Position numbers and translations under genes: made by a program | NCBI RefSeq assembly: GCF_016127575.1 | Contig: NZ_CP066018.1 | Location: forward strand, 3,630,001 to 3,662,000 | Source: Cupriavidus necator | GTDB lineage: Bacteria; Pseudomonadota; Gammaproteobacteria; Burkholderiales; Burkholderiaceae | Direction: 5' to 3' | DNA: 32,000 nt | Part shown: one piece after another, positions 2,908 through 29,244 of the stretch | Position numbering within the stretch: position 1 is the stretch's first letter | Layout: every line of letters begins with the position of its first letter | Notes under the pieces: generated by a model | Database searches by the model: none | What the model was told of the DNA's origin: nothing | The model's input: the letters and a program-made list of their open reading frames with translations, nothing else

Positions 2908-2932
2908 TACTAGGACTTTGTGTATCGTAGTT
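2908..2932 (-). promoter_or_regulatory. Palindromic box A (TACTAGGA-N9-TCGTAGTT) at the Rrf2 gene start
   Basis: An 8-9-8 inverted repeat with 2 arm mismatches and the same core and 9-nt A/T-rich spacer as boxes B-F. It lies 5 nt upstream of the Rrf2 ATG (2901-2903). No SD sequence is visible, so the mRNA may be leaderless or short-leader. Confidence 0.55.
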
Positions 2933-3101
2933 GCAATGCTATACAACTTCCGTGGGGTCCGCAAGGCAAAGGACATGCCGTTGGCAGTCACGGCAACCGG
3001 ACCGATAACCGGCTTCCGGTCGCCCGGCGCCCGGTGCCTGGCTGGTGTGAGCGACAAGCCTCCTGATACGCACTGAAACACACCCGGCAGCAGGCACGCC
3101 G

Positions 3102-4592
3102 TCAGGATGGTTTCCGCTGCCCCCATCCGCCGCCGAGGCTGCGCACCAGCGACACCGTCGCCGCGGCACGCAAGCCTGCCACCGCATTGGCATCGCGCTG
3201 CGACTGCAGCACGGTGCGATCGGCGTCGATCACGGTCAGGTAGTCGACGGCACCGGCATCGTAGCGGCTGCGCGAGATGCCCTGGGCCCGTTTCGCGCCG
3301 GCCAGGGCGCCGTCGAGCGCCGTGGCCTGCTGGCTGAGCCAGCGCACATCGGCCAGGCCGTCCTCCACCTCACGGAATGCCGACAGCACTGTCTGCCGGT
3401 AGCGCGCCACGCTCTCCTCGTGCGCGGCGCGGGCGCCAGCAAGGCTTGATCGGTTGCGGCCACCGTCGAACACGGTCTGCGCCACCGTCGAACCGACCAG
3501 CGGACCCAGCAGCCATGTGCGCGACGACCACTTGAACAGGTTCGACAGGTCCGACGACTCGAAGCCGAACAGCGCCGTGAGCGAGATGCGCGGGAAAAAC
3601 ACCGCGCGGGCGATGCCGATGCGCGCATTGGCCGCCGCCATCTGGCGTTCCGCCGCCGCAATATCGGGCCGGCGCTCGAGCAGTTCCGACGGCAGCCCCG
3701 CCGGCACGGCCACCGGAGCGGTATCGAACGGCCGGGCGGCGAGTCCGAACTGCGCGGGCGCCACGCCGGTCAGTACGGCCAGTGCATGTTCCTGGTTGGC
3801 GCGGCGGCGCTCGATGCTGGCCAGGCCGGAGCGCGCCGCGCCTAGTTCGCTTTCGGCGCGGGCCGGATCCAGGTCGGTGGCCTCCCCTGCTTCGTACCGC
3901 GTGCGCAGCAGCGACAGCGCGCCCTCACGCAGCCTGATCGTCGCATTGAGCAGCTCGCGGTCACTGTCCAGGGTGCGCAGCGCGAAGTAGGCCTGCGCCA
4001 CGTCGGCCTGCAGCGCCAGCTGCACGGACCGGTACAGTTCCTCGGCACCCCGCTCGTCGGCGCGCGCGGCGTCCACGCTGCTGGCCACGCGGCCGAATAG
4101 GTCGAGTTCGTAGCTGGCGAATGCGCGGGCCTTGAGCACCGTCTGGGGCGCCACGCGCGCGCCATCGGGCAGCCCCTGCGAGGCGGCCGACGGCTGCGAG
4201 CGAGTCGGGTCCAGGCCCACGCTCAGTTGCGGATACCGCGCCGCCTCGGTGGCGCCGGTGAACGCACGCGCCTGCTTCAGGCGCGCCGCCGCCGCGGCCA
4301 GCTCCTGGTTGTGAACGTTGGCTGCATCGATCAGCCGGTCCAGATCGGCATCACCAAACAGCTTCCACCACTCACCGCGCTGCTGGCCTTCGTCCGGCGT
4401 GGCGGTCTTCCATTGCGCGCTCTCGGCCGCGGCGGCCTCGGCTTCCTTGAACGTGGAGGCACTGGGTGTCTCCGGCACCTTGTAGGTCGGCGCCAGCGAG
4501 CAGCCGGCCAGGAGCAGCGCGGCCGCCATGGCCGCAAGCCTTGGCACGTTCCGCTTCGTCGCATCGCTAATGTTATGCATGTCTTTCACCAT
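3102..4592 (-). CDS. RND efflux outer-membrane factor lipoprotein, NodT family (OprN/OpcM-like)
   Basis: The start is taken at MVKDMHNISD...AAMAAALLLAGCSLAPTYKVPE (lipobox LAGC). The ATG shares one base with the stop of the upstream RND gene (TAATG at 4590-4594). The longer 636-aa track ORF is an artefactual 5' extension into the RND gene. Confidence 0.9.
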   Translation of the reverse strand: MVKDMHNISDATKRNVPRLAAMAAALLLAGCSLAPTYKVPETPSASTFKEAEAAAAESAQWKTATPDEGQQRGEWWKLFGDADLDRLIDAANVHNQELAAAAARLKQARAFTGATEAARYPQLSVGLDPTRSQPSAASQGLPDGARVAPQTVLKARAFASYELDLFGRVASSVDAARADERGAEELYRSVQLALQADVAQAYFALRTLDSDRELLNATIRLREGALSLLRTRYEAGEATDLDPARAESELGAARSGLASIERRRANQEHALAVLTGVAPAQFGLAARPFDTAPVAVPAGLPSELLERRPDIAAAERQMAAANARIGIARAVFFPRISLTALFGFESSDLSNLFKWSSRTWLLGPLVGSTVAQTVFDGGRNRSSLAGARAAHEESVARYRQTVLSAFREVEDGLADVRWLSQQATALDGALAGAKRAQGISRSRYDAGAVDYLTVIDADRTVLQSQRDANAVAGLRAAATVSLVRSLGGGWGQRKPS

Positions 4593-7500
4593 TACTCTGC
4601 GGACGCCACGGCGTGCGCGACCTTTGCATCCGTCGACACCGCCGCGCGGCGCTGGCCGCGCGTGGCCAGCAGGCGCAACGCCACATAGAACACCGGCGTC
4701 AGGAACAGTCCGAAGAAGGTCACGCCGAGCATCCCCGCGAACACCGCCACCCCCATGGCCTGGCGCATTTCCGCGCCGGCGCCGCTCGACACCACCAACG
4801 GCACCACGCCCATGATGAAGGCGAACGAGGTCATCAGGATCGGACGCAAGCGCAGGCGGCTGGCCTCGATCGCGGCCTCGACCACGGTGCGGCCGTGATG
4901 CTCCAGCTCGCGCGCGAACTCGACGATCAGGATCGCGTTCTTGGCCGATAGCCCCACCAGCACGATGAAGCCGATCTGCGTGAAGATGTTGTTGTCCCCT
5001 TGCGTCAGCCATACGCCCGTCATGGCAGCCAGCAGGCTCGTCGGCACGATCAGGATCACGGCCAGCGGCAGCGTCAGGCTCTCATACTGGGCAGCCAGCA
5101 CCAGGAACACCAGCAGCACGCACAGCGGGAAGATCCACACACCCGCGTTGCCGGCCAGGATGTCCTGGTAGGTCAGCTCGGTCCATTCGAAGCCGATGCC
5201 CTTCGGCAGGGTTTCGGCAGCGATGCGCTCGGCGGCAGCCTGCGCCTGGCCCGACGAGAAGCCCAGCGCCGGGCCGCCATTCAGGTCGGCGGCAGTGAAG
5301 CCGTTGTAGCGGATCACGCTGTCCGGGCCAAAGCCTTGCTTGACCTGCACCAGCGACGACAGCGGCACCATCTCGCCGCTGGCGCTGCGCGCCTTCAGCT
5401 GCAGGATATCCTCGGCATGCTGGCGGTACTGCGCATCTGCCTGCACCTTGACCTGGTAGGTACGGCCAAACTTGTTGAAGTCGTTGACGTAGGCCGAACC
5501 CAGGTAGGTCTGCAGCGTATCGAACACATCGGTCACCGGCACGCCGAGCTGCTTGGCCTTGGTACGGTCGAGCTGCACATCAAGCTGCGGCACGTTCACC
5601 TGGTAGTTGCTGAAGATGCCGGCAAGCTCAGGCGTGGCGCGCGCCTTGGTCATGAACGAGTTGGTGGCGTCGAACAGGGCGTCATAGCCCAGTGCGGCGC
5701 GGTCCTCGATCATCAGCTTGAAACCGCCGATCGTGCCCAGGTCCTGCACCGGCGGCGGCGGGAACACGGCAATGAACGCGTCCTGGATCGCGCCATACTC
5801 CTTGTTCAGGTCCGCGGCAATGGCCTTGCCCGACAGCTCCTTGCTCTTGCGCTTCTCGAACGGGTCAAGCGTGACAAAGACGATGCCGGCGCTCGGGCTG
5901 TTGGTGAAGCCGTTGATCGACAGGCCCGGGTAGGCAACGGCCGATTCCACGCCCGGATGCTTGAGCGCGATCTCCGACATGCGGCGCGTCACGTCCTCGG
6001 TGCGATCCAACGTAGCGCCGTCGGGCAGCTTGGCAAAGCTCACCAGGTACTGCTTGTCCTGCGCCGGCACGAAGCCCTTCGGCACGAGCTGGAACACGCC
6101 CCAGGCGGCCACCAGCATCACGGCGTAGACGCCAAATACCGAGCCCTTGCGGCGGATCACACCCTTCACGCCACGGCCATAGCTTTCGGAGCTGCGGCCG
6201 AAGAAGCGGTTGAAGCGGACGAAGAACTTGCCGAGGACCTTGTCCATGCCACGCGTCAGCCAGTCCTTGGGCGCGTCATGGCTCTTGAGCAGCAGGGCCG
6301 ACAGCGCGGGAGACAGCGTCAGCGAGTTGAAGGCCGAGATGATGGTCGAGATCGAGATGGTCAGCGCGAACTGCTTGTAGAACTGGCCGGTCAGGCCCGT
6401 CATGAAGGCCAGCGGCACGAACACAGCGATCAGCGTCAGCGCGATGGCGATGATGGGGCCGCTGACTTCGCGCATGGCCTTGTAGGTGGCCTCCTTCGGC
6501 GTCAGCCCCTCTTCGATGTTCCGCTCGACGTTCTCGACCACCACGATGGCATCGTCGACCACGATACCGATGGCCAGCACCAGCCCAAATAGCGACAGCG
6601 CATTGATCGAGAAGCCGAACGCATGCATCAGCCCGAAGGTACCGACAATCGACACCGGCACCGCCAGCAGCGGGATGATCGACGCGCGCCACGTCTGCAG
6701 GAACAGGATCACCACCAGCACCACCAGCACGATCGCCTCGAACAGCGTGTGGACCACCGCCTCGATGCTGTGGCGCACGAACTGCGTGGGGTCATAGACG
6801 ATGCTGTAGGCCACGCCTTCCGGCATGTTCTGCTTCAGCTCGGCCATGGTCTTGCGCACCTCGTTCGAGATCTCGATCGCGTTCGCCCCCGGTGACTGGA
6901 AGATCAGCAGTGACAGGGCGGACTTGTTGTCCAGCTGCGAACGCAGCGCGTATTCCGAAGCACCCAGTTCGATGCGCGCAATGTCCTTCAGGTACGTGAC
7001 CACACCGTCAGGCGAGGTCTTGGCGATGATGTCGCCGAACTCTTCCACGGTCTGCAGCCGGCCCTGCGCGTTCACCGACAGCTGCAGGTCGGTGCCCGGC
7101 AGCGTCGGCGACTGGCCGAGCACGCCTGCCGCCACCTGCACGTTCTGCTCGCGGATGGCGCGCACCACGTCCGACGCGGCGAGCCCGCGCTCGGCGATCT
7201 TCTCCGGATTCAGCCACACTCGCATCGAGTAGTCACCCGCGCCGAACAACCGCACCTGGCCGACGCCCTGGATCCGCGCGATGCGGTCCTTCACGTTGAT
7301 CAGCGCGTAGTTGCGCAGATAGGTCGTGTCATAGCGGTCGTTGGGCGAGACCAGGTGCACCACCATGGTCAGGTCGGGCGAACTCTTGACCGTGGTGATG
7401 CCCAGGCGGCGCACATCTTCCGGCAGGCGCGGCTCGGCCTGCGAGACACGGTTCTGCACGAGCTGCTGGGCCTTGTCCGGATCGGTGCCCAGCTTGAAGG

Positions 7501-7783
7501 TCACCGTCAGCGTCAGCGTGCCGTCGGTATTCGCCTGCGAGTTCATGTAGAGCATGTCCTCGACGCCGTTGATCTGCTCTTCCAGCGGCGTGGCCACGGT
7601 TTCGGCGATCACCTTAGGGTTGGCGCCCGGGAACTGCGCGCGCACCACCACTGACGGCGGCACCACTTCCGGGTACTCCGAGACCGGCAAATTGAACATC
7701 GAGATGGCGCCGATCAGGAAGATCAGCACCGACAGCACGCCCGCGAAGATCGGGCGGTCGACAAAAAATTTCGAGAAATTCAT
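4592..7783 (-). CDS. RND multidrug efflux permease, HAE1 family (MexF/BpeF/CeoB-like)
   Basis: 1063 aa, uninterrupted. The N-terminus MNFSKFFVDRPIFAGVLSVLIFLIGAISMFNLPVSEYPEVVPPSVVVRAQFPGANPKVIAETVATPLEE closely follows MexF-type pumps as I remember them. It shows the 12-TM AcrB-like architecture. Confidence 0.95.
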   Translation of the reverse strand: MNFSKFFVDRPIFAGVLSVLIFLIGAISMFNLPVSEYPEVVPPSVVVRAQFPGANPKVIAETVATPLEEQINGVEDMLYMNSQANTDGTLTLTVTFKLGTDPDKAQQLVQNRVSQAEPRLPEDVRRLGITTVKSSPDLTMVVHLVSPNDRYDTTYLRNYALINVKDRIARIQGVGQVRLFGAGDYSMRVWLNPEKIAERGLAASDVVRAIREQNVQVAAGVLGQSPTLPGTDLQLSVNAQGRLQTVEEFGDIIAKTSPDGVVTYLKDIARIELGASEYALRSQLDNKSALSLLIFQSPGANAIEISNEVRKTMAELKQNMPEGVAYSIVYDPTQFVRHSIEAVVHTLFEAIVLVVLVVILFLQTWRASIIPLLAVPVSIVGTFGLMHAFGFSINALSLFGLVLAIGIVVDDAIVVVENVERNIEEGLTPKEATYKAMREVSGPIIAIALTLIAVFVPLAFMTGLTGQFYKQFALTISISTIISAFNSLTLSPALSALLLKSHDAPKDWLTRGMDKVLGKFFVRFNRFFGRSSESYGRGVKGVIRRKGSVFGVYAVMLVAAWGVFQLVPKGFVPAQDKQYLVSFAKLPDGATLDRTEDVTRRMSEIALKHPGVESAVAYPGLSINGFTNSPSAGIVFVTLDPFEKRKSKELSGKAIAADLNKEYGAIQDAFIAVFPPPPVQDLGTIGGFKLMIEDRAALGYDALFDATNSFMTKARATPELAGIFSNYQVNVPQLDVQLDRTKAKQLGVPVTDVFDTLQTYLGSAYVNDFNKFGRTYQVKVQADAQYRQHAEDILQLKARSASGEMVPLSSLVQVKQGFGPDSVIRYNGFTAADLNGGPALGFSSGQAQAAAERIAAETLPKGIGFEWTELTYQDILAGNAGVWIFPLCVLLVFLVLAAQYESLTLPLAVILIVPTSLLAAMTGVWLTQGDNNIFTQIGFIVLVGLSAKNAILIVEFARELEHHGRTVVEAAIEASRLRLRPILMTSFAFIMGVVPLVVSSGAGAEMRQAMGVAVFAGMLGVTFFGLFLTPVFYVALRLLATRGQRRAAVSTDAKVAHAVASAE

Positions 7784-7885
7784 CTTGGTCTCGGCGAAAG
7801 CAGTCCCCGCTGGCGGTCCGCCGGAGCGGACGCCAGTGCAATCTCAGGGGAGAATTCCAGTTCGGTCTGTGGCGGAGGGTGGGAC

Positions 7886-9127
7886 TCAGCTCATCCTGGC
7901 CTTTCCGGCCTTCGCGTCAGCTGCGGCCTGCTTGCGATCCGTCGTGCTGCCACGCGACTCCAGTTCGCTGCGGTAGGCCATCGCTACCGGCTTCGGGGTC
8001 ACGGTGTCGCCGGGGCGCACGCGCGTCAGGCCATTCACGACGATGTTCTCGCCCGGTCGCAGACCCTTGCGGATCACACGCAGCCCTTCGTACGTCGGCC
8101 CCAGTTCGACTTCGCGGTACGCGAGCTTGTTGGCCTTTTCCACCAGGAGCACGAACTTCTTGCCCTGGTCGGTGCCTATGGCGCGATCGTTGACCAGCGC
8201 GGCGGGATATGGCGAGCCGCCGCCGAGCTTGACCTTCGCGTACAGGCCCGGCAGCAGGCGGCGGTCCTCATTGTCGAAGACGGCGCGCACGCGGATCGTA
8301 CCGCTGCGCGTGTCGAGCCGGTTGTCGATCGAATGAATCCGGCCCTTGTGCGGATTGCCATCCTCGTTGGCCAGGCCCAGGAATACCGGCAGGTCTCCCT
8401 TGCCGCCACCAGCGCCCGGCGTCGTGTAGCGCAGGTAGCTCTGCTCGTCGACATCGAAGCTCGCGTACACCGGCGAGACCGATACCACCGTGGTCAGCGG
8501 CGGCGATGCCGCGCCGGCCGCCACAAGGTTTCCCACCGTGATCTCGGCACGCGACACCCGGCCCGTGACCGGTGCAACGACGCGCGTGTAGCCCAGGTTC
8601 AGCTTCGCCACCTCCAGCGCCGCCTGCGCACCACGGACGTCGGCCGACGTCTCGCTGGCCGCGTTGATGCGCTCATCGAACTCGCGGCGCGAGATCGCGT
8701 TATCGTCGAGCAGGCGTTGCGCGCGCGCCTTCTCGGTCTGTGCATGCGATGCACGTACCTGCGCCGCTGCCAGTACCGCCTCGGCGCGCGCCACTTCGGC
8801 CGCATACGAGCGCGGATCGATCGTGAACAGCGGGTCGCCCTTCGTCACGATCGAGCCATCGCGGAAATGCACCGTTTCGATCGCGCCGGACACACGTGGA
8901 CGGATCTCAACACGATCCACAGCCTCGATGCGGCCCGAGAATTCATCCCATTCGGTGATGATGGTCTGGCCCACCACTGCCGCCACTTCCACCGCCGGGG
9001 TCGGCGGCGGCATGGTCGCCTGTGCTTCCCCGCCGTGCCAGGGACGCAGTACCGAGGCTGCCACGCCGGCCCCCAGGATTGCCACGAAGGCAATGGCGAG
9101 CAGTGTGTGTCGAGACTTGCGATTCAT
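7886..9127 (-). CDS. RND efflux periplasmic adaptor (MFP, MexE-like)
   Basis: 413 aa with an N-terminal membrane anchor, coiled-coil hairpin and beta-barrel regions typical of the HlyD/AcrA family. A GGAG RBS lies 8 nt upstream. It is the first gene of the MFP-RND-OMF operon. Confidence 0.9.
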   Translation of the reverse strand: MNRKSRHTLLAIAFVAILGAGVAASVLRPWHGGEAQATMPPPTPAVEVAAVVGQTIITEWDEFSGRIEAVDRVEIRPRVSGAIETVHFRDGSIVTKGDPLFTIDPRSYAAEVARAEAVLAAAQVRASHAQTEKARAQRLLDDNAISRREFDERINAASETSADVRGAQAALEVAKLNLGYTRVVAPVTGRVSRAEITVGNLVAAGAASPPLTTVVSVSPVYASFDVDEQSYLRYTTPGAGGGKGDLPVFLGLANEDGNPHKGRIHSIDNRLDTRSGTIRVRAVFDNEDRRLLPGLYAKVKLGGGSPYPAALVNDRAIGTDQGKKFVLLVEKANKLAYREVELGPTYEGLRVIRKGLRPGENIVVNGLTRVRPGDTVTPKPVAMAYRSELESRGSTTDRKQAAADAKAGKARMS

Positions 9128-9200: not shown

Positions 9201-9243
9201 GCGACCCATAACTACGATTATATTAGTCGTAGTTATGGGTCGC
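9201..9243 (-). promoter_or_regulatory. Palindromic box B, perfect 17-9-17, overlapping a sigma70-like promoter of the efflux operon
   Basis: GCGACCCATAACTACGA-TTATATTAG-TCGTAGTTATGGGTCGC, with perfectly complementary arms. On the minus strand the -35 is TTGCGA (9240-9245). A 17-nt spacer follows, then -10 TATAAT (9217-9222). The box lies 75 nt upstream of the MFP start. Confidence 0.75.
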
Positions 9244-9428
9244 AAGATATTTCTTGATCGAGCAACGTTGTCCACCTGCATGTGCAGCGGTGAGATCGTG
9301 TCGCGGGCGTTGTATGAAGTTGAGCCGACAACCTCCGCGTCGTCTTTCTGCGGCCGACCGGGGCCGGTGCGCGCGTCCAGCCCATCACGCCGGATCTGGC
9401 GAAGCGGCTTCGGAGGTTGCGCGGATGC

Positions 9429-10271
9429 TTACGCGTTGCGTAGCGACCGGAACCCGGAGCGCAATTCGGCACTGAATAGCTCTGGCTCCTCCCAGGCGGC
9501 AAAGTGACCGCCCTTCTCGACGCGGCGATAGTAGATCAGGTTTTGATAGGCTCGCTCCAACCACTGTTTTGGCGGCCGGTAGACCTCGCCAGGGAAAACC
9601 GTCACTGCCACCGGAACGGTGATGGGAGAATTCATTGCCGGGGCGCTACTGGCTTCCCAGTAGATCCGTCCGCTCGACTCGCCTGTATTTGTGAGCCAAG
9701 AGAGCGAGATGTTGTCAAGGATCGCATTACGGCCGAGTGCTCGCTCCGGATCGCCACGCGTGAATACCCAGTCGGCCTGCTTGTCATAGATCCACGCTGT
9801 CAGCCCCACTGGCGAATCGGCCAGGCCAAAGGCAATGGTTTGCGGCCGCGTTTGCATGATGGCCGCGTAACCGAATCCCCGGTTGAGAAAATCCCTCGCG
9901 TCGTCGAACACTTGCCTTTCTTCAGGGGTCAGGATTGACGGCGCAGGGTCCCCGCTTTTCAGCGCCATGGCTATCGCCGGTGGCAACGTGGTGGCGCGCT
10001 CGATGCGGTTGACGTGGATGCCAAGCAGCCCTTCAGGCGCCAGACTGCCAAGAGCGTCGGAGATGATTGCGCCCCAGTCGCCTCCCTGCGAAACGTAGCG
10101 CGCATATCCGAGCCGCTTCATCAGCACGTCCCACGCGCGGGCGATGCGGCCCGGGTGCCAGCCAGTGTCCGTGGGCTTCTGTGAGAAGCCGAAGCCGGGA
10201 ACCGACGGAATCACGAGATGAAACGCATCGTCCGCGCTGCCGCCATGCGCTGTCGGGTCCGTCAGCGACGG
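9429..10271 (-). pseudogene. Epoxide hydrolase (alpha/beta hydrolase), 5'-truncated
   Basis: Only the hydrolase core is present (...LTDPTAHGGSADDAFHLVIPSVPGFGFS...GGDWGAIIS...FAAWEEPELFSAELR). The frame is open to ~10271. The ~110-aa N-terminal epoxide-hydrolase domain and a plausible start are absent. Confidence 0.75.
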
Positions 10272-10930
10272 CGCCGCGCTTCGATCCCGCGCAGGCTCGG
10301 CGGACCTTTACGCTGGCCCTGTCTGATGTTGGAGAAGCGGCATTCCTGCCGCGCCTGCTGGCCCGGCTCATGAAAGAGGCGCCGCATGTGGACGTGCGTA
10401 CGGTGTCGGCACGGCACACGGACATCATGGATCAGCTCGAACGCGGCAGGATCGACCTGGCCATTGGCTACTATCCGGATCTGGGCGGTTCGGACGTATT
10501 CCAGCAGCGCCTGTTCCGGCATGGCTTCGTGTGCCTGGCGCGCAAGAATCACCCAGTCGCACGCGGACGCATGACGGCGCAACAGTTCCGGGAACCGCCT
10601 CATGCGATGATCCAGAACGAAAGCCGCAGCCAGGAGCTGGTCGAGGCGTATCTGCGCCAGCACGGTATCGCACGCCGCGAGATGCTGCGTTCTCCGCATT
10701 TCCTCAGCATTCCGCTCGTGATCGCATCGTCGGATCTGGTCGTCACGGTGCCGCTGCCGGTCGGCGAGCTGTTCGCGCGCATCGCGGATGTACAGGTCCT
10801 TGAGCCACCGTTCCCGATCCCCGCTTTCGATCTCAGGCAGCATTGGCACCGTTGCCAGCATGACGACCCGGGCAATCGCTGGCTGCGGGCGATCACCCAG
10901 GAACTGTTCGGCGAATCTCCTGGCGAGTAG
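10272..10930 (+). pseudogene. LysR-family regulator, substrate-binding domain only (HTH missing)
   Basis: Homology starts at ...FDPAQARRTFTLALSDVGEAAFLPRLLARLMKEAPHVDVRTV and continues to the stop. The ~90-aa N-terminal wHTH is absent. The upstream part of the track ORF (10067-10270) is antisense to the hydrolase and meaningless. Confidence 0.75.
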
Positions 10931-11007: not shown

Positions 11008-12219
11008 TCAGGCCACTACCACATAGTGCGGATCGGCCCAAGCCAGCGCCTCGGCACGGTCAGCACTTGGCGGATAGATCCACTCGGTGTTGATCTGCGT
11101 CTTCAGTGCCTTGGCTTCTGCGCCCACCAGCTTCACCTGACGATCCCAGCCTTCGGTGTATACAGCCCCCCACGACCCGAGATCCAAGCAGGTGACATAT
11201 TTCGGCTGGCTGTAAGGAATCGGCGTTGCCCCCAGGAGGTCCGCCGCCACATTATGTCCTGCAATCCGGCCCAGCTTCATCGCGTGCTGACAGGACATCG
11301 CGGCGTGGTTGCCTTCCTCATCGGTGGACGCGTAGGCAACGTCACCAGTAGCGTAGACCGTATCGATGCCTTTGACCTTCAGGTTGCGATCGACATGGAG
11401 CCGCCCGAAGTTGTCGCGCTGCGCAGGAATCTGCGACGTCAGCGCACTGGCGCGCGCGCCGGCGGTCCAGATTACCGTGTCTGTCTCGATGCGCTGACCG
11501 TTCTCGAGCGTAACGCCGTTCGCATCGACCGCCGCGACGCCGGAGCCGAGCTTCCATGTCACACCGAGCTCAGTCAGCGCCTCGGTAATCACCGGACGCG
11601 GGCCGGGACCCAGATCCGGGCCAACGTCGCTGTTGCGCTCAACCATAATCACGTTCACGGCAGCGTCCTTGCCGAACACCTCGCGTAGACGGGCAGGCAT
11701 TTCCGCTGCGGTCTCGATACCGGTGAAGCCGGCACCGGCGATCACTACCGTGTTGCGCGCTACGCTTTCGGGACGACGCGCCAGGCTGGCGAGATGCGCA
11801 TCAAGCGCTGCGGCATCAGCCACCTGGTCTACATTGAACGAATGCTGCTCGAGACCCGGAATCTGCGGCCGGAACAGGCGGCTACCAGCGGCAAGGACCA
11901 GGCGGTCATAGCCGAGCTTACGGCGCGACGTATCGCCACCCAGCCCCACAAGTTCCACTTTCTGGCTTACCACATCAATGCGTTCGACCAGGCCCTGGAT
12001 GAACCTGACGCCCACAGCCTGAAAGATTTCCTGCAGCGGCGCCCTCATGCCGCCTGGGTTCTTCTCATAAAGACGCGGACGCACGTGCAGCTCGGGCTCC
12101 GGCGCGACCAGTACGATCTCCACGTCAGTGCGCCCCACTTCATCCAGAAGGCGGGCCGAACCCAGCGCGCTCCACATGCCGGCGAAGCCGGCACCAATAA
12201 CAACAATACGTTTCGACAT
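11008..12219 (-). CDS. NAD(P)/FAD-dependent oxidoreductase, NDH-2 (type II NADH dehydrogenase)-like, copy 1
   Basis: 403 aa with two Rossmann motifs (VVIGAGFAG and VVIAGAGFTGIETAAEM) and ATGDVAY...QHAMKLGRIAGHNVA. An AGGAG RBS is present. It is a paralogue of 13196-14407. Confidence 0.9.
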   Translation of the reverse strand: MSKRIVVIGAGFAGMWSALGSARLLDEVGRTDVEIVLVAPEPELHVRPRLYEKNPGGMRAPLQEIFQAVGVRFIQGLVERIDVVSQKVELVGLGGDTSRRKLGYDRLVLAAGSRLFRPQIPGLEQHSFNVDQVADAAALDAHLASLARRPESVARNTVVIAGAGFTGIETAAEMPARLREVFGKDAAVNVIMVERNSDVGPDLGPGPRPVITEALTELGVTWKLGSGVAAVDANGVTLENGQRIETDTVIWTAGARASALTSQIPAQRDNFGRLHVDRNLKVKGIDTVYATGDVAYASTDEEGNHAAMSCQHAMKLGRIAGHNVAADLLGATPIPYSQPKYVTCLDLGSWGAVYTEGWDRQVKLVGAEAKALKTQINTEWIYPPSADRAEALAWADPHYVVVA

Positions 12220-12302: not shown

Positions 12303-12345
12303 GCCCACCGTAACTACGATTGTAATAGTCGTAGTTACGGTGGGC
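12303..12345 (-). promoter_or_regulatory. Palindromic box C1, perfect 17-9-17, overlapping the promoter of NDH-2-like gene 1
   Basis: GCCCACCGTAACTACGA-TTGTAATAG-TCGTAGTTACGGTGGGC. On the minus strand the -35 is TTGCCC (12342-12347). A 17-nt spacer follows, then -10 TACAAT (12319-12324). An A5 tract lies just upstream of the -35. Confidence 0.75.
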
Positions 12346-12442
12346 AAGATTTTTCCGCGACGCCAAGGTCGCGACATTCTCTTGTGCCATCTCGTGCGCT
12401 TTTCACCTGCGCCTTGCACTTCAATCATGTATCGACTATCTT

Positions 12443-12467: not shown

Positions 12468-12709
12468 TATTGAGCTGGTGCTTTTCCTGCGTGTGACATT
12501 GCTGGAGCTGACGGACGCGATGCTCTACCAAACCGGGCGGCGCGTCTCCGACCCCGGCAGGCCTACAGCAGGCCACGACGAAGCAAGCGCGCTTGGCGAT
12601 CGAATACCGGCAGCAAATGATCAAGATCAAGGCTCTGGTTGACGATACCCGCCGCACGGCCGAAGAACGGTTGGAGGACATCGCCAAGCTGCTCGAGGGC
12701 CTAGGACGA

Positions 12710-12950
12710 CTACCCCTCATCGCTGTCCACGACAAACACGGCCAGCAGCTTGGCGGGCTTTGACTTGCTCGCGTTGCGGCTAACTGCATGGTGCGATCCC
12801 GGCTCCTCATGGAAGCTCTCGCCCGCCTTGCAGATGCGTTCCGGCCCATTGTCGACCTTGCTCGCAAGGCTGCCAGAGACGACATAGGCATGCCGGTTCC
12901 CTCAGGCACCCGGGTGCATCCAGCCGGTTCTCGTTACAGAGATTCTGTCC
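12710..12950 (-). pseudogene. Cupin-domain protein remnant (decayed paralogue of 29662-30087)
   Basis: The minus-strand translation YVVSGSLASKVDNGPERICKAGESFHEEPGSHHAVSRNASKSKPAKLLAVFVVDSDEG-stop (12710-12886) matches the C-terminal half of the cupin at 29662-30087. Upstream, the metal-binding HYH region is deleted or garbled and the signal peptide is absent. Confidence 0.8.
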
Positions 12951-12967: not shown

Positions 12968-12992
12968 AACTGCGATTCATGTAGTCTCAGTA
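12968..12992 (-). promoter_or_regulatory. Degenerate palindromic box F' (AACTGCGA-N9-TCTCAGTA) upstream of the cupin remnant
   Basis: The reverse complement of 12964-13027 aligns with the box F cassette (TTGCACTTC...GATC...GTTACT..GACTA..TGA.CG.AGTTAA.GC). The arms are 6/8 self-complementary and the spacer is 9 nt. Confidence 0.45.
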
Positions 12993-13066: not shown

Positions 13067-13109
13067 GCATCGCTTAACTACGACTACTATGATCGCAGTT
13101 AAGCGATGC
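13067..13109 (+). promoter_or_regulatory. Palindromic box D, 17-9-17 (1 mismatch), overlapping the promoter of NDH-2-like gene 2
   Basis: GCATCGCTTAACTACGA-CTACTATGA-TCGCAGTTAAGCGATGC. The -35 is TTGCAT (13065-13070). A 17-nt spacer follows, then -10 TATGAT (13088-13093). An A9 tract (13055-13063) lies just upstream of the -35. Confidence 0.75.
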
Positions 13110-13195: not shown

Positions 13196-14407
13196 ATGTC
13201 CAAACGGATTCTTGTCATTGGCGCCGGCTTTGCCGGCATGTGGAGCGCGCTGGCTTCGGCCCGTTTGCTTGACCAGGTTGGGCGCACCGATGTGGAGATC
13301 GCCCTTGTCGCACCGAAGCCGGAACTGCACATCCGCCCTCGCCTCTACGAGCAGAATCCGAACGGGATGAAGGCGCCGTTGCAGGACATCTTCCAGGCCG
13401 TTGGCGTCAGGTTCATCCAGGGCAAGGTGGAGCACATCGATGTCGCAAACCAGACGGTGAGCGTTGCGGGCGTTGGCGCTGATACGCCGCGCCAGCGCAT
13501 CAGCTATGACCGTCTGGTGCTTGCTGCAGGAAGCCGCCTGTTCCGGCCGCAGATCCCAGGGCTGGACCAGCATGCCTTCAATGTCGACCAGGTCGCTGAC
13601 GCCGCGGAGCTTGAAGCCCATATCCATGGACTGGCCGACCGCCGGGAGAGCGCCGGCCGCAATACGGTGGTAATCGCGGGTGCCGGCTTTACCGGTATCG
13701 AGACGGCTGCCGAAATGCCGGCTCGCCTCCGCGAAGTCCTGGGCGAGGACGCTGCCGTGAGCGTGATCATGGTCGAGCGAAATGCCGCGATCGGCCCTGA
13801 CCTGGGCGAGGGTCCGCGGCCGGTCATCACGCAGGCGCTGGCCGAGCTTGGGGTGACATGGAAGCTCGGCTCGGGTGTCGCGGCTGTCGATGCGAAAGGC
13901 GTCATGCTCGAGAATGGGGAGCGCATCGAGGCAGACACCGTGATCTGGACGGCGGGCGCCCGGGCCAACGAACTCACCGCACAGATTCCGGCAGAGCGGG
14001 ACAACTTTGGCCGGCTGCATGTTGACCGCAACCTGAAGGTCAAGGGGGTCGAGGCGGTGTTCGCCACCGGCGACTGCGCCTATGCCGCGACCGATGACGA
14101 AGGCAACTTCGCCACCATGTCTTGCCAGCACGCCATGAATCTGGGCCGCTCGGCCGGCCACAACGTGGCAGCAGACCTGGTGGGCGCGGCGCCAATCCCT
14201 TACAGCCAGCCGAAGTACGTGACCTGCCTGGACCTGGGGCCCTGGGGCGCTGTCTACACGGAAGGCTGGAACCGCCAGGTGAAGATGACGGGCGGCGTCG
14301 CCAAGGCGCTGAAGACGCGGATCAATACCGAGTGGATCTATCCTCCGAGCGCGAATCGTGAAGAAGCGCTTGCCTTGGCTGACCCACGGTTCATCGTCGT
14401 GGCCTGA
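13196..14407 (+). CDS. NAD(P)/FAD-dependent oxidoreductase, NDH-2-like, copy 2
   Basis: 403 aa, the same length as copy 1. By eye roughly four-fifths of residues are identical. It has a homologous RBS context (TTCAGGAGTATGAAAG-ATG) and a homologous terminator hairpin. Confidence 0.9.
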   Translation: MSKRILVIGAGFAGMWSALASARLLDQVGRTDVEIALVAPKPELHIRPRLYEQNPNGMKAPLQDIFQAVGVRFIQGKVEHIDVANQTVSVAGVGADTPRQRISYDRLVLAAGSRLFRPQIPGLDQHAFNVDQVADAAELEAHIHGLADRRESAGRNTVVIAGAGFTGIETAAEMPARLREVLGEDAAVSVIMVERNAAIGPDLGEGPRPVITQALAELGVTWKLGSGVAAVDAKGVMLENGERIEADTVIWTAGARANELTAQIPAERDNFGRLHVDRNLKVKGVEAVFATGDCAYAATDDEGNFATMSCQHAMNLGRSAGHNVAADLVGAAPIPYSQPKYVTCLDLGPWGAVYTEGWNRQVKMTGGVAKALKTRINTEWIYPPSANREEALALADPRFIVVA

Positions 14408-19911: not shown

Positions 19912-20794
19912 GCGCAGCTGTTCATCCACCTTGATATTGCCGCGCTCGTCGGTTTCGACGCCTGCCTTGTCGAGTCCCAGGTCTTCCGTGTTGGGCACTT
20001 TCCCCACGCCAGCAGCAGGTGCGAGCCGTGCACATCGCGCGATCCCGTTGCGCAATCGAGCCCGACGGCGATGCCCTCCCCGGCCCGGCGCGCGGTCAGG
20101 CAGTTGGCATCGAGGCGGATTCCCCCCCCCTCGCGCTCCAGGATCTCCCGCAGACACGTCTTCGTCTTCGCGCTGGATCAGGCGCGGGCCATTTTTCCAC
20201 CACGGTGACCCTTGCGCCAAAGCGCCGGTACATCTGGGCAAACTCCAGGCCGATGTAGCTGCCGCCAATGATGACCAGATGCTCCGGCAGGTAGTCCACG
20301 TCCATCATGCCCGAATTGGTCAGGTACGCCACCGTGTCGAGCCCGGGCATCGGCGGAACGAGGGCCCGGGCGCCGACGTTAATAAAGATGCGATCGGCTT
20401 GCAGTAGTTCGCCATTGACGCGCACACCGTGCGCGCTTTCCAAGCGGGCGTGCCACTGGTAGACCGTGCCGTTGGCCAGGCCGCGCATCCACTGTTCCAC
20501 GCCGCTGGCGGAGCGCCCGGCGATGTCGTCCTTGCGCGCCTTCACCTGCCTCATGTCGACAGCGACCGGCCCGCCAATCGTCACGCCATAGTCGCCCGCC
20601 CGCCGCGCAAGATGGGCCGCATACGCGCTCGCGATCAGGGTCTTGGTAGGAATGCGGCCGGTGTTCACGCAAGTGCCGCCAAAATGCGCGCGCTCGATGA
20701 CTGCCACTTTCATGCCGGAGCCGGACAGCCGCGCGGCAAGCGCGGGGCCGGCTTGTCCGGTGCCGATGATGATCGCGTCGAATCCCTGGGCCAT
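19912..20794 (-). pseudogene. Pyridine nucleotide-disulfide oxidoreductase (mercuric reductase / dihydrolipoamide dehydrogenase-like), frameshifted and 3'-truncated
   Basis: The N-terminus is MAQGFDAIIIGTGQAGPALAARLSGSGMKVAVIERAHFGGTCVNTGRIPTK. Homology then hops between frames (GPRLIQREDEDVSA / EILEREG..IRLDANCLTARRAGEGIAVGLDC / VGKVPNTEDLGLDKAGVETDERGNIKVDEQLRTS). A C9 homopolymer lies at 20122-20130. The dimerisation half is absent, and the gene abuts the dipZ 3' end. Confidence 0.8.
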
Positions 20795-21031
20795 CGCGCT
20801 CTCCCTGGCTTGTGCCATGCCCGCTGCACTCACCACGCGCAGCGGCGCATTCGCGCTGGGGATCGGGCAGCAATCGTACCTGGCTCACGCCCAAGCATAG
20901 ACAACCGCGTGGGATTTCGCGATGTCACAGAACAGCGTCAATTTTCACGGGCTTTCCCGGCCTGTCCTGCATTTCACCATCAGGCCGCGCGAGGATGAGC
21001 CGGCCAAGCGCCCTGAGCGAGGCTTGTCCCC

Positions 21032-22333
21032 TCAGCCAAGCCTGAGCTGCGCCTCCAGCCCACCGCCCTCCCGGTTGTGCAGCGTCAGCGAACCGCCGAT
21101 CGCCAGCGCCAGCTGGTGCGCGATGGCCAGGCCCAGGCCCGTGCCGCCGGTCTCACGGTTGCGCGACGCTTCGAGCCGGACAAACGGCTGTATCACGGAT
21201 TCGAGCTTCTCTGCCGGGATGCCGGGCCCGCGATCAAGCACGCCGATCACCACCGCGGCGCCGTCGCGGCGCACTCTCAGTTCCGCCGCCCCGCCGAACT
21301 TGATGGCGTTGTCAGTCAGGTTGGTCAGGATGCGGCGCAGAGCGTGCGGGCGCGTCAGGATGGCGCCGCCGGTATTCTGCCGGATAGTGACGGCCTTGCC
21401 GGTGTCCTGGTAATCGTAGACCAGGCTCTCGACGAAGGACCCGATATCGATCCGCGATGCCTTTTCGCCGTCGCCATGCATGGCGCGCGCATAGGTCAGC
21501 CCCTCCTTGACCAGCGTCTCGATCTCGGCAAGGTCGTGCACCAGCTTGCGCTTGTCTTCGGAATCCTCCGCCATCTCGGCGCGCAGCTTCATGCGCGTGA
21601 TCGGCGTCTGCAGGTCGTGCGAGATTGCCGCCAGGATCTGCACGCGCTCCTCGACAAAGCGTGCAATGCGCTCGCGCATGGCGTTGAACGCGCGCGCGGC
21701 ACGCACCAGTTCAGTCGGACCGGTCTCGGCCAGCGGCTCGCTCGCGGCGTTCGGGTCGAGCGCGTCGGCGGCATTGGCCAGCGCCACCACCGGGCGCAGC
21801 GACAGCCGTACCGCCAGCCAGCAGCACAGCACCAGCAGCAACAGCTGCAGCACCAGCACATAGGGCAGCCATTGCGCGATCGCGGGCGGCTTCGGATGCA
21901 CGTCGATGGTCAGCGGGCTGCCATCGCTGAGGGTGAGGTGCGCCTGCAAGCGTTTGCCCTGCCCCGGGATCGATTCGACCCTGACGGGGAAGCGGCCGCC
22001 GCTCGCTTCGGTAATGCGGTCGGCGATCTCCTGGGCCTGCGCGCTCATCTCCGGCACGCCCGGCAGGCCCGGCCCGAGCACATACTGGTAGTTGCCGCGG
22101 TTGACATGCCGCAGCCACTGCGGCCGCTCCGCCGCCGGCACGCGGTCGAGAATCGCGATCGACGTTGATACGTCGGTTTCCAGCGTGCCGAGCATAACCT
22201 GGCGCGCGGTGATGTAGCGCTCCGCAAACAGCACGCCGAACGACAGGCCATGGGCCACCACGAGCCCGGCCAGCAGGATCAGGAATAGCCGCGCGCCCAG
22301 CGTGCGGGGCCACGGCAAGGCCCGGAGGTTCAC
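21032..22333 (-). CDS. Sensor histidine kinase (EnvZ-like: 2 TM, HAMP, HisKA, HATPase_c)
   Basis: 433 aa with an H-box ISHDLQTPITRM and G-boxes DRGPGIP and GGTGLGLAIA. The GTG start overlaps the response-regulator stop (GTGA at 22330-22333). Confidence 0.9.
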   Translation of the reverse strand: MNLRALPWPRTLGARLFLILLAGLVVAHGLSFGVLFAERYITARQVMLGTLETDVSTSIAILDRVPAAERPQWLRHVNRGNYQYVLGPGLPGVPEMSAQAQEIADRITEASGGRFPVRVESIPGQGKRLQAHLTLSDGSPLTIDVHPKPPAIAQWLPYVLVLQLLLLVLCCWLAVRLSLRPVVALANAADALDPNAASEPLAETGPTELVRAARAFNAMRERIARFVEERVQILAAISHDLQTPITRMKLRAEMAEDSEDKRKLVHDLAEIETLVKEGLTYARAMHGDGEKASRIDIGSFVESLVYDYQDTGKAVTIRQNTGGAILTRPHALRRILTNLTDNAIKFGGAAELRVRRDGAAVVIGVLDRGPGIPAEKLESVIQPFVRLEASRNRETGGTGLGLAIAHQLALAIGGSLTLHNREGGGLEAQLRLG

Positions 22334-22944
22334 TGCTGCGCCTCCCGGATCGCTACCGGCATCGAGAACACGTAGCCCTCGCTGCGCACGGTCTTGATGT
22401 AGCGGGGCTCGCGCGCATCGTCCTTGAGATGCTGGCGCAACCGGCTGACCAGCAGGTCGACCGATCGCTCGAACATTTCCGCTTCGCGGCCCTGCGTGAG
22501 GCTGAGCAGCTGGTCACGGTTGAGCACGCGCTGCGGATGGTCGACAAACACGCGCAGCAAGCGGTATTCCGCGCCACTCAGCGCGACGATGATGTGGGCC
22601 AGTAGCTCGCGCGCGGCGAAAGGCTTGGGGAGATAGTCGTCGGCACCCATTTCAAGGCCGAGGATGCGATCGGTCTCGTCGCTGCGCGCGGTCAGCATCA
22701 GGACCGGGGTGGTCTTGTGCTTGCCGGCCCGCAGTTCACGGCACAGCATCAGGCCATCATCGCCCGGCATCATCACGTCCAGCACGATCAGGTCGACGGC
22801 ATTGGCCTCCAGGATCGCGCACATTTGCCTGCCATCCTGCGCAACGGTCACGCGCAGCCCATTCTTGGCCAGATAGGTCGATACCAGCTCCCGGATTTCC
22901 CGGTCGTCATCGACAACCAAGATATGGTCGACGTGTGCATCCAT
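22330..22944 (-). CDS. OmpR-family response regulator with an apparent ~40-aa in-frame internal deletion
   Basis: The start is taken at MDAHVDHILVVDDDREIRELV, giving 204 aa. The receiver domain is complete (DD...D...T...KPF). After ARELLAHI the sequence jumps to IVALSGAEYRLLRVFVDHP, so the linker and the first beta-strands of the wHTH domain present in E. coli OmpR are missing. Confidence 0.75.
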   Translation of the reverse strand: MDAHVDHILVVDDDREIRELVSTYLAKNGLRVTVAQDGRQMCAILEANAVDLIVLDVMMPGDDGLMLCRELRAGKHKTTPVLMLTARSDETDRILGLEMGADDYLPKPFAARELLAHIIVALSGAEYRLLRVFVDHPQRVLNRDQLLSLTQGREAEMFERSVDLLVSRLRQHLKDDAREPRYIKTVRSEGYVFSMPVAIREAQQ

Positions 22945-23273
22945 CTCTATCCCCTCGGAAAAGTACGGTGAACCGCCAGTCTGCGTCGACGCCATTGTAT
23001 GAGTGCCGGCGATTCTCCGTGTATCGCACTGTATCCGGTACAGCAAACGCCACAGTCCGATACATATTTATTTACTCACGGGACACCGCCATCGTCGGTG
23101 GATACCGCGCGCGGGTCATGTGGACCCCTTCCTTCCCGTGAAAGCACCCTCGGCGGTGGTGGCAGGAAAGGTGGTATCTATGACATTGGCGCCATGACCT
23201 TGCGCACCTAATCTTGAACTCACGCAGCCGGCCAGCCGGTGAGACTTCCCTCCAGAGAACCAGGAGCTTTGAC

Positions 23274-25305: not shown

Positions 25306-25350
25306 AGCGAACTCCATGGAGCGGTCGGAGAGTGTCCGTCCGTGACACGC

Positions 25351-26310
25351 TTACGCCATCAGCTTCTCCTTCGTGATGGGGAGATCCCGAATCCTCTTGC
25401 CGGTGGCGTGGTATACCGCATTGGCGACAGCGGCGGCAAGGCCGGTAATCCCGATCTCCCCAATGCCGCACGCGCCGAATTCATTGAATTCGAGGTCGGG
25501 ATGGTTGAGCAGGATCACGTCGATCCCCGGCTGGTCTGCATGGACCGGAACGGCATACTCAGCATAGTTGTTGTTGCCCGGCATGCCGTCGCGTCCGTCA
25601 TACTCGGTGGCTTCGAACAAAGCCATGCCGACGCCCATCACGATCGCGCCTTCCACCTGGTTGCGCGCAGTGACCGGGTTGATGACCCGCCCCACATCGA
25701 TCGCGCTCACGACCCTGGCGACGCGCAACCGTGAAATGCCGGGATCCCAGCGCACCTCAACGAAGTGGGCGCCGAAAGACGTGCAGGACAGCTTGTCGGT
25801 CGGTGTGCCGCCGGTCCGGGCAAAGCCCTCCGCGCTGGCAAAACGCTGAGCATTGAGGATCGAGGCATGATCGACGGCGCGCTTGCCGTCGGTCAGGCGG
25901 CCATTCTGCGTCGCGAACGTGCGCAGCTGACCGATCGCGTTGCGCGTGGCCTCGGCAACGGCCGGGAGCACGCTGGCCGTCGCCCACGAACCGCCGGCTA
26001 CCGGAGCCGCCGGAAACGCCGAATCGCCCAGCCTGACATCGATCTTTTCAAATGGCAGCTCGGTCAGTTCGCTGACCGTTTGCGCAACGATGGTGTACAT
26101 GCCCGTGCCGATGTCCTGGATTGCGCAGATCACCGCGGCGGTGCCATCGCTGCGCAGGAGGACACGAGCCTCGGCTGGCGAGCGCCAGGCGTCCCAGTTG
26201 CACACCGCCATGCCGTAGCCGACGATCTCGGTGCCGGCCGTCATCGAACCCGGCCTCGGATCGCGCCGGTCCCAGCCGAACTTGCGGCTGCCCTGCCCGA
26301 TGGCCCATCG
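25351..26310 (-). pseudogene. Molybdopterin-binding subunit of a xanthine dehydrogenase/aldehyde oxidase-family hydroxylase, C-terminal fragment only
   Basis: Homology covers ...VGYGMAVCNW...DIGTGMYTIVAQTVSELTELPFEKIDVRLGDS...INPVTARNQVEGAIVMGVGMALFE...GIGEIGITGLAAAVANAVYHATGKRIRDLPIT. About 400 N-terminal residues are absent. Homology starts at the aceE stop codon. Confidence 0.8.
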
Positions 26311-26311
26311 T

Positions 26312-29008
<2,697 letters not shown>

Positions 29009-29048
29009 GGCAAGTCTCCGTTAAGGAATTCGGTGAAAACCAGCATAG

Positions 29049-29083
29049 GCGATAACTACGACTTTACAAGTCTTAGTTATCGC
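29049..29083 (-). promoter_or_regulatory. Palindromic box E (13-9-13, 1 mismatch) upstream of aceE
   Basis: GCGATAACTACGA-CTTTACAAG-TCTTAGTTATCGC, lying 41-75 nt upstream of the aceE GTG. The promoter hexamers are less canonical than at boxes B, C1 and D. Confidence 0.65.
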
Positions 29084-29217
29084 GGAGACTTCAGGGCAAA
29101 CCATGGGCTGTTCATGTCTGGCACTTGACGGGAAACAGAGCTGCAAGATCTTTTCCCGATGCTTGTCTCGGCGCAGTCCATGTGCTCGCTTGCACTTCGA
29201 TGGACGATCGACTATCG

Positions 29218-29244
29218 TTACTACGACTATAATGATCGTAGTTA
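29218..29244 (+). promoter_or_regulatory. Palindromic box F (TTACTACGA-CTATAATGA-TCGTAGTTA) upstream of the cupin operon
   Basis: The core arms are 7 bp perfect. A perfect TATAAT (29228-29233) sits inside the 9-nt spacer. A GGAG RBS (29253-29256) and the ATG at 29263 follow. Confidence 0.7.

Follow-up and report, generated by a model that had tools for sequence, protein, structure and literature searches.

The 32,000-nt stretch of Cupriavidus necator DNA analysed here (NZ_CP066018.1, positions 3,630,001 to 3,662,000; hereafter the window) carries the gene of an Rrf2-family regulator directly downstream of a resistance-nodulation-division (RND) efflux operon and on the same strand. Further along lie two genes for flavoproteins resembling type-II NADH dehydrogenases (NDH-2), a stand-alone aceE paralog with no E2 or E3 genes adjoining it, and an operon for a small secreted protein, a cupin, an AhpD-like protein and a di-iron protein (Table 1). 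The window also holds eight palindromic boxes, which we call A, B, C1, C2, F', D, E and F. Here, we propose, at a probability of roughly 0.8, that these boxes are operators of the Rrf2-family protein, a putative repressor and a proteobacterial homolog of the [2Fe-2S] regulator RsrR of Streptomyces venezuelae. The evidence comes from the statistics of the motif, its overlap with promoters, its conservation, the homology of the protein to RsrR and the conservation of the cluster ligands.

We searched the window for the strict core ACTACGA-N9-TCGTAGT with up to one mismatch and found seven sites, starting at 2909, 9211, 12313, 12444, 13077, 29055 and 29220, where 0.06 are expected by chance; none of 100 shuffled sequences reached this number. 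Box F' is the eighth site; it departs from the strict core at three positions and fits the family-wide consensus. Using the relaxed pattern ACTNNGA-N9-TCNNAGT, taken from that consensus of orthologous loci, we recovered exactly the eight palindromes already claimed in a sequence-only reading of this DNA and no others, both without mismatches (0.01 expected) and with one mismatch allowed (0.32 expected). The constant 9-nt spacer of that reading was found in all eight boxes, and its extended coordinates for B, C1 and D (43 bp each) and for E (35 bp) were correct. Of the two unpaired half-sites it listed, the one at 408-414 is the only unpaired exact ACTACGA in the window, which equals chance (1.03 expected), and the stretch at 21414-21420 does not match the heptamer exactly. 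None of the eight boxes falls within an open reading frame (ORF) with family support, and all are thus outside intact genes, as had been claimed; the further claim that every copy faces a start codon fails for C2 and F', which face no intact gene.

How are the boxes placed relative to the promoters? In an alignment of 103 unique boxes, each oriented with its flavoprotein gene, we observed a common order of elements: an A-tract, cTTGCn, six nucleotides, ACTACGA, the spacer CtcATAgAA and TCGTAGT. Taken together, the five 3'-terminal bases of the spacer and the first T of the right arm read TAGAAT, and this hexamer follows TTGCnn at a distance of 17 bp. Therefore, the spacer, which is A/T-rich and asymmetric, is a -10 element, and the box lies within the core promoter; the A/T-richness of the spacer noted earlier is real and is largely accounted for by this embedded element. 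In the window we found two designs. In the first (B, C1 and D), a TTGCnn -35 element is followed by the left half-site, which takes up the space behind it, and the 3' part of the spacer plus the following T provides the -10 element, so that box B, for example, occupies the spacer between both elements of the efflux-operon promoter and covers its -10. The promoters of B and C1 were called independently by a promoter scan, and C1 fits the conserved architecture of the 103 orthologous sites. In the second design (A, C2 and F), the box starts 1-5 nt past a TAnnnT -10 element and lies over the predicted transcription start; the corresponding TTGCnn-17-TAnnnT element is conserved upstream of the rsrR-like orthologs in Burkholderiales. 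Because the boxes sit either between the -35 and -10 elements or just after the -10 of sigma-70-type promoters, we infer repression by occlusion. In the autoregulatory boxes of a set of Rrf2-encoding loci (L121-L200), TCGGAGT or TCCGAGT usually stands in place of TCGTAGT in the arm nearer to the start codon (compare window positions 2904-2931), which places a GGAG or GAG at Shine-Dalgarno distance, 4-8 nt from the ATG. One arm of the autoregulatory box may thus double as operator and ribosome-binding site.

The protein encoded by the rsrR-like gene matches the Rrf2 family over residues 4-144 (PF02082, E=1.3e-31; TIGR00738, 94.7 bits at a cut-off of 73.3). Its closest solved relative in a phmmer search of the PDB is RsrR (6hsd, E=6e-24), to which it is 41% identical over 160 amino acids (BLASTP); the next matches are far weaker (7zpn, 4e-8; NsrR, 3e-7; IscR, 7e-7). 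RsrR holds its [2Fe-2S] cluster through Glu8, His12, Cys90 and Cys110 (PMC9218516; PMC8204329). These four residues align with E9, H13, C94 and C117, which are invariant in 20/20 orthologs of 66-90% identity from Cupriavidus, Paraburkholderia, Burkholderia, Janthinobacterium, Azospira, Massilia, Dyella, Serratia and Klebsiella. The NCBIfam scores for NsrR (51.2 bits, cut-off 182), IscR (49.3, cut-off 207.55) and RirA (48.8, cut-off 193) are all below threshold, and the three closely spaced cysteine ligands of NsrR and IscR are absent, the cysteines lying at positions 94, 101 and 117. By these scores and ligands, the protein is not NsrR, IscR or RirA.

The agreement with RsrR extends to the operator. 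The probes bound by RsrR in electrophoretic mobility shift assays contain ACTCGGA-TACCCGATG-TCCGAGA and ACTCGGA-TAGTCTGTG-TCCGAGT (PMC5015018, Table 3). RsrR and window operators have the same 7-9-7 layout and identical half-site positions 1-3 and 6-7, and they differ at positions 4-5. The statement of the sequence-only reading that no regulon with this operator had been described is hence wrong, since the RsrR operator ACTCGGA-N9-TCCGAGT is the same box with two half-site positions changed (PMC5015018). The RsrR-type half-sites ACTCGGA and ACTCCGA were found as natural variants in proteobacterial autoregulatory boxes; in the consensus of the family, ACTACGA predominates. We also considered a co-variation of the recognition helix with the half-site and dropped it: single genomes hold both ACTACGA and ACTSCGA or ACTGCGA boxes, and positions 4-5 are therefore simply degenerate. 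Fold, nearest relative and ligand set all agree with RsrR, as do the format of the operator and the presence of a box at the regulator's own promoter; the sole RsrR feature that we did not find in the sequence is Trp9. Literature searches returned no publication on a proteobacterial RsrR-type regulator, on an Rrf2/NDH-2/AzoR regulon or on this regulon; a Legionella Rrf2 gene that came up is unrelated. The database names of the orthologs are all generic.

Is the box a common element beside such genes in other bacteria? We scanned one genome per species for exact matches to TWACTACGA-N9-TCGTAGTWA and obtained at least 120 loci; about 35 chance matches were estimated for the whole collection from its size. 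Among the matches listed, flavoprotein orthologs lie less than 600 bp downstream of 81/124 exact sites (median 98 bp) and Rrf2 orthologs downstream of 62/124, mostly as a divergent pair with the flavoprotein gene, and the hosts of these linked boxes are Rhizobiaceae, many Burkholderiales, Pseudomonas and Enterobacterales, that is, alpha-, beta- and gammaproteobacteria. Other listed sites precede cupin-AhpD pairs (Rhizobiaceae, Burkholderiales) and the small protein. Matches in taxa such as Prevotella and Patescibacteria lacked neighbour genes of this kind and were taken as chance background. The sequence-only reading had named conservation in relatives as a test of its proposal and had ascribed a redox or detoxification flavour to the regulon; both fit the boxes found on promoters and upstream of orthologous genes in three proteobacterial classes.

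A second set, of 80 metagenome loci encoding Rrf2 relatives, was anchored on the protein and is unbiased for the motif. A box ending 3-9 nt before the Rrf2 start was found in 69/80 of these loci at a match of 9/10 or better and in 50/80 at 10/10, compared with 41/16000 (0.3%) at random positions. Box A has the geometry seen in these 69 loci, an agreement that concerns its position only. All 36 flavoprotein genes linked to the Rrf2 gene in this set have a box at most 220 nt upstream. In G+C-rich loci many of the apparent genes beside boxes were spurious long ORFs, and we kept only those with Pfam support. In other taxa, a Flavodoxin_2/AzoR-like flavin mononucleotide (FMN) reductase of about 220 aa stands directly after the box (L001, L013, L027, L057, L062 and L111 in Enterobacterales; L081; L163, L171, L185 and L198), and in some loci the gene after the box encodes an MFS_4 transporter, an alpha/beta hydrolase or a DUF3095 protein. 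These members are absent from the window.

Within Cupriavidus, the orthologous operon of membrane fusion protein (MFP) and RND pump is preceded by a box in Cupriavidus sp. amp6 and C. consociatus, where box B and its -35 element are kept and the flanks diverge. A box precedes aceE in Cupriavidus sp. amp6 and C. neocaledonicus, among the matches listed; in the former, box E is a perfect palindrome at the same place, and in the latter it is broken at a rearrangement. Box F and its promoter are nearly invariant in three Cupriavidus species. Efflux as a recurrent partner of the Rrf2 gene was considered and dropped: the pump of Pseudomonas segetis (L005, 4096-4716; likewise L049) has its own divergent TetR regulator, so that the adjacency of efflux genes to this Rrf2 gene does not alone argue for co-regulation. 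Membership of efflux genes is supported only in Cupriavidus (the window, L007 and L032).

Table 1. Genes, boxes and promoter elements of the window; operator and promoter assignments are predictions
Feature	Positions	Strand	Remarks
rsrR-like gene	2346..2903	-	185-aa Rrf2-family regulator (Pfam Rrf2), proposed binder of all boxes
Box A	2909..2931	-	presumed autoregulatory operator; gene strand ACTACGA-tacacaaag-TCCTAGT; ends 5 nt before ATG
Box A promoter (inferred)	-35 TTGCGG 2959-2964, 17 nt, -10 TAGCAT 2936-2941	-	box starts 5 nt after -10
RND efflux operon	3102..9127	-	Pfam HlyD_D23, ACR_tran, OEP
Outer-membrane factor gene	3102 to about 4601	-	
RND permease gene (OqxB/MexF-like)	4592-7783	-	NCBIfam RND_permease_1, 1487 bits; OqxB model 1457 bits, under its cut-off
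MFP gene	7886-9127	-	
Box B	9201..9243 (core 9211-9233)	-	43-bp perfect palindrome in efflux-operon promoter
Box B promoter	-35 TTGCGA 9240-9245, 17 nt, -10 TATAAT 9217-9222	-	promoter scan, 10/12 matches
NDH-2-like flavoprotein gene 1	11008..12219	-	403 aa; Pyr_redox_2 E=3.6e-43; 80% identical to gene 2
Box C1	12303..12345 (core 12313-12335)	-	43-bp palindrome in flavoprotein gene 1 promoter
Box C1 promoter	-35 TTGCCC 12342-12347, 17 nt, -10 TACAAT 12319-12324	-	promoter scan, 9/12
Box C2	12444..12466	+	orphan operator; box 1 nt after -10
Box C2 promoter	TTGCAC 12414-12419, 17 nt, TATCTT 12437-12442	+	
Tn3-family transposase fragment	12469-12703		in place of the C2 downstream gene; DNA 90% identical to annotated Tn3-family transposase stretches of Cupriavidus plasmids
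Cupin gene remnant	12716..12892	-	residues 72-130 only (59 residues); tblastn 88% identity to intact cupin 29662-30087
Box F'	12969..12991	-	degenerate operator ACTGCGA-N9-TCTCAGT, upstream of cupin remnant
Box D	13067..13109 (core 13077-13099)	+	43-bp near-perfect palindrome in flavoprotein gene 2 promoter
Box D promoter	A-tract 13056-13064, -35 TTGCAT 13065-13070, 17 nt, -10 TATGAT 13088-13093	+	read from sequence
NDH-2-like flavoprotein gene 2	13196..14407	+	403 aa; putative core conserved target; closest solved structures are type-II NADH dehydrogenases (4nwz, 5na1, YjlD), E about 1e-29
aceE paralog (pyruvate dehydrogenase E1)	26312..29008	-	stand-alone; TIGR00759 1462 bits; PDH_E1_M
Box E	29049..29083 (core 29055-29077)	-	centred 58 nt upstream of aceE start
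Box F	29220..29242	+	box 1 nt after -10; 20 nt before first-gene ATG; covers predicted transcription start
Box F promoter	TTGCAC 29190-29195, 17 nt, TATCGT 29213-29218	+	
Operon of small secreted protein/cupin/AhpD-like/di-iron	29263..31498	+	
Small secreted protein gene	29263-29565	+	
Cupin gene	29662-30087	+	Pfam Cupin_2
AhpD/CMD-like gene	30084-30539	+	Pfam CMD; ahpD_dom
Di-iron protein gene	30536-31498	+	ExxH x2; weak FA_desaturase_2/AurF Pfam matches

As for binding, cofactor, sign of regulation and signal, we infer the following. A dimer of the rsrR-like protein would bind the 7-9-7 palindrome, for which the family consensus is (T)WACTNSGA-N9-TCSNAGTW(A), and the bound repressor would exclude or trap RNA polymerase at both types of promoter. 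By analogy with RsrR, it would be the holo [2Fe-2S]2+ form that binds DNA, so that reduction, loss or damage of the cluster would free the DNA and switch the regulon on. The regulon would comprise the repressor itself, the two NDH-2-like NAD(P)H flavoproteins as conserved core target and the small-protein/cupin/AhpD-like/di-iron operon, with the MexF/OqxB-like RND efflux pump and the stand-alone aceE as additions of the Cupriavidus lineage. This content points to NAD(P)H/quinone redox chemistry. The signal could be reductive stress or else damage of the cluster by oxidants, nitric oxide or electrophiles; either is possible.

Several observations weigh against this proposal. The affinity of RsrR for DNA is high in the oxidised [2Fe-2S]2+ form and low in the reduced form, and the apo form shows no binding (PMC5015018). 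Reduction as the inducer of genes that resemble an oxidant or quinone defence would be counter-intuitive, unless the true trigger is loss of the cluster. In the S. venezuelae mutant, most genes bound by RsrR are unchanged in expression (PMC5015018); binding therefore need not mean strong regulation. The equivalent of Trp9 is Tyr10, aromatic and invariant in the 20 orthologs, and two further cysteines that are not RsrR ligands are conserved as well (C14 invariant, C101 in 95%). Because of this exchange and these additional cysteines, the sensing chemistry may differ from that of RsrR. The promoter scan found no consensus promoter around box E, and C2 and F' control no intact gene. Protein binding also does not explain the extended, lineage-specific arms of some boxes that are described below.

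Could the boxes instead be operators of another transcription factor, encoded elsewhere in the genome, with the Rrf2 gene merely one of its targets? The link between the Rrf2 gene and the box is one of sequence, and box A by itself would fit the Rrf2 gene as a target equally well. Other regulators are also present in the window, namely a response regulator (22330-23046) and a LysR fragment (10067-10930). Nevertheless, we consider a different factor quite unlikely: the box accompanies the Rrf2 gene across three proteobacterial classes whatever the other neighbours are, its layout and half-site match the proven operator of the closest characterised homolog, and Rrf2 operators have this format, a palindrome of 23-27 bp around a central spacer of about 9 nt (PMC5015018, PMC9338935).

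The window as a whole is a mosaic, decaying accessory region. Apparent truncations affect an aldehyde dehydrogenase (1117-2163, profile positions 10-325 of 461), the LysR-type gene mentioned above, which lacks a helix-turn-helix, a Pyr_redox_2 protein (fragment at 20096-20836) and a lone MoCoBD_2 domain (25351-26400). A fragment of an IS110-type transposase (DEDD_Tnp_IS110) lies at 15943-16815. Just 3' of flavoprotein gene 2, a match to group II intron domains D1-D4 (RF02001, 101.8 bits, E=6e-20; 14544-14711, plus strand) is probably an intron fragment, as no intact reverse-transcriptase ORF follows it. Between the box-bearing modules we observed a two-component system and a cluster of thiol-redox genes, which encode a Redoxin/AhpC-TSA protein and a DsbD_TM-Redoxin-Thioredoxin_10 fusion (16685-19874, 21032-23046). 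The window scan found no box among these genes, which therefore apparently lie outside the regulon.

In such a region, most copies of the box might be passive products of segmental duplication and rearrangement, with only one or two working operators among them. C1 and D, whose flavoproteins are 80% identical, lie in paralogous modules, and so do C2 and F; the C2 and F promoters share CTTGCACTTC and ATCGACTATC.TTACTACGACTAT at the same offsets; C2 faces a transposase fragment and F' a gene remnant; and truncated genes, the IS110 fragment and the group II intron fragment occur throughout. The C1/C2 and F'/D modules are paralogs of one another and of E/F as well. The count of eight in the sequence-only reading, though every copy is present, is thus inflated by paralogous duplication (C1/D, C2/F) and includes C2 and F', two rearrangement relics. 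In two relatives (L025, L038) an exact box lies between divergent flavoprotein and cupin-AhpD genes, the place to be compared with F', and the second box equivalent to C2 precedes a homolog of the small secreted protein in the C. necator A5-1 locus (L103) and elsewhere. Duplication accounts for the number of boxes, not for their existence. Six of the eight boxes (A, B, C1, D, E and F) face intact genes, and five of these, all except E, are embedded in promoter-like elements; moreover, other Cupriavidus species retain B, E and F while the flanks diverge, and conservation across classes is seen for the A and D types. A largely passive origin thus appears very unlikely.

The extended palindromes deserve separate consideration. 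Operator palindromes with perfect core arms often reach 35-57 bp through outer arms that differ in sequence between copies and species and yet stay complementary (window positions 9201-9243, 12303-12345 and 13067-13109; L004, L010, L013, L016, L018, L085, L086, L094, L122 and L147). The extension reaches at least 5 bp beyond +-14 in 23/97 sites, with a chance of about 1e-3. In the protein-anchored set, extensions of at least 6 bp occur in 6/30 boxes with perfect arms and in 0/59 with imperfect arms. Compared with two sister species, box B has a left flank that is changed as one block; this flank is exactly complementary to the right one and lies beside a 12-nt deletion, a pattern that looks like hairpin-templated conversion. 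This suggests that perfect operator palindromes may grow toward 43-bp hairpins by template switching; selection for structure in the extended arms is possible.

Do the palindromes then act as nucleic-acid structures, such as intrinsic terminators, mobile hairpins of the repetitive extragenic palindromic (REP) or miniature inverted-repeat (MITE) kind, or cruciforms? The three 43-bp palindromes B, C1 and D and the complementary outer arms would suit such a role. Also, C1 on the plus strand and D on the minus strand match the hairpin-plus-T-run pattern of a terminator, so that the earlier dismissal of terminators called for an argument, which follows. Only these two boxes match, both antisense to the adjacent gene, and they would stop antisense transcripts only. 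Their T-run is the complement of the A-tract upstream of the -35 element and is equally frequent with and without arm extension. There is no T-run at A, B, C2, E and F, and the terminator scan calls none at A, B, E and F. From Rhizobium to Pseudomonas, the inner 7+7 positions keep their sequence and not merely their pairing. The arms are not fully complementary in 77/84 autoregulatory boxes (fully in 7/84), and each arm fits ACTNSGA independently. As mobile elements the copies would be expected to share flanks or target-site duplications, which they lack; only the inner 23-27 bp are common, their positions are fixed relative to the -35 and -10 elements and to start codons, and the motif is conserved in three proteobacterial classes. 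With no Rfam family matching any box either, a structural role is the least probable of the alternatives.

In summary, the switch that we propose is of a known kind, that of RsrR, and the new part would be a proteobacterial relative with a different and better-defined regulon than that of the founding member. RsrR is known from a single Streptomyces species and its role is unclear, with 630 sites in chromatin immunoprecipitation (ChIP) and essentially one gene responding to its deletion (PMC5015018). Its proteobacterial relatives would govern a compact, palindrome-defined regulon whose conservation reaches from rhizobia to Pseudomonas, Serratia, Klebsiella aerogenes and the Burkholderia cepacia complex. 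With the NDH-2-like flavoprotein, AzoR-like quinone reductases and cupin/AhpD-like proteins as its members, the role of this type of sensor would become testable in genetically easy organisms. If confirmed, the MexF/OqxB-like RND pump in the Cupriavidus regulon would represent a new regulatory route to efflux-based tolerance. For annotation, ACTNSGA-N9-TCSNAGT beside an 'Rrf2 family regulator' could be read as an RsrR-type operator.

We further speculate, and regard this as doubtful, that the RsrR-type Fe-S repressor and the NDH-2-like flavoprotein, which is linked to it almost without exception, form a feedback pair in a widespread proteobacterial redox circuit that answers reductive or quinone stress. 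The flavoprotein would reset the NAD(P)H/quinone state that the cluster reads, and the stress would be reductive or quinone stress rather than classical oxidative stress. If so, the circuit would have captured a MexF/OqxB-type multidrug efflux pump and a stand-alone pyruvate dehydrogenase E1 in Cupriavidus, which would place resistance by efflux and the flux of central carbon under an Fe-S redox sensor.

How does the proposed system compare with known ones? The regulons of the Firmicutes regulators YodB, MhqR and QsrR and of SifR (PMC9218516) contain similar genes, namely AzoR-type FMN quinone reductases, cupin/dioxygenase-like proteins and NAD(P)H oxidoreductases. In contrast to the system proposed here, these regulators sense by alkylation or oxidation of cysteines and without an Fe-S cluster; SifR is itself an Rrf2 repressor, but belongs to the single-Cys Rrf2 cluster and uses different operators (PMC9218516). 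NsrR and IscR share superfamily and fold with the rsrR-like protein, bind as dimers to promoter-overlapping palindromes of about 23-29 bp and have their DNA binding controlled by an Fe-S cluster. However, their three-Cys motif (Cys-X5-Cys-X5-Cys-X2-His in IscR; D8, C93, C98 and C105 in NsrR of S. coelicolor; PMC9218516) is absent here, their operators have other sequences, and the regulon described here has no hmp or isc/suf genes. SoxR, a [2Fe-2S] protein of the MerR family, is a functional analogy only, and the parallel has been drawn for RsrR (PMC5015018): in Pseudomonas and Streptomyces it controls, through its redox state, a small regulon of efflux pumps and oxidoreductases in response to redox-active compounds. 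Yet SoxR comes from an unrelated family and is an activator that acts by promoter distortion and is active when oxidised.

The closest counterpart is RsrR itself (Sven6563; PDB 6HSD/6Y42; PMC5015018). The two differ in their hosts, Actinobacteria and Proteobacteria, in half-site positions 4-5 (C-G in RsrR, A-C here, degenerate across the family), in the Tyr that stands here for the switch residue Trp9 and in the extra conserved cysteines. Likewise, the linked target of RsrR is an NmrA-type regulator and not a conserved NDH-2-like flavoprotein, and its promoter has two tandem boxes in place of the one box abutting the start codon here. The 630 ChIP sites of RsrR are mostly half-sites, whereas the regulon proposed here is apparently small, restricted to palindromes and includes an RND efflux pump. 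What both have in common, beside 41% identity, is the same Glu/His/Cys/Cys ligand set, a 7-9-7 operator (class 1, described as 11-3-11) with five of seven half-site bases the same (ACTCGGA and ACTACGA), a box at the own promoter, and NAD(P)H/quinone oxidoreductases among the targets, those of RsrR class 1 including nuo, a quinone oxidoreductase and an NADH-FMN oxidoreductase (PMC5015018).

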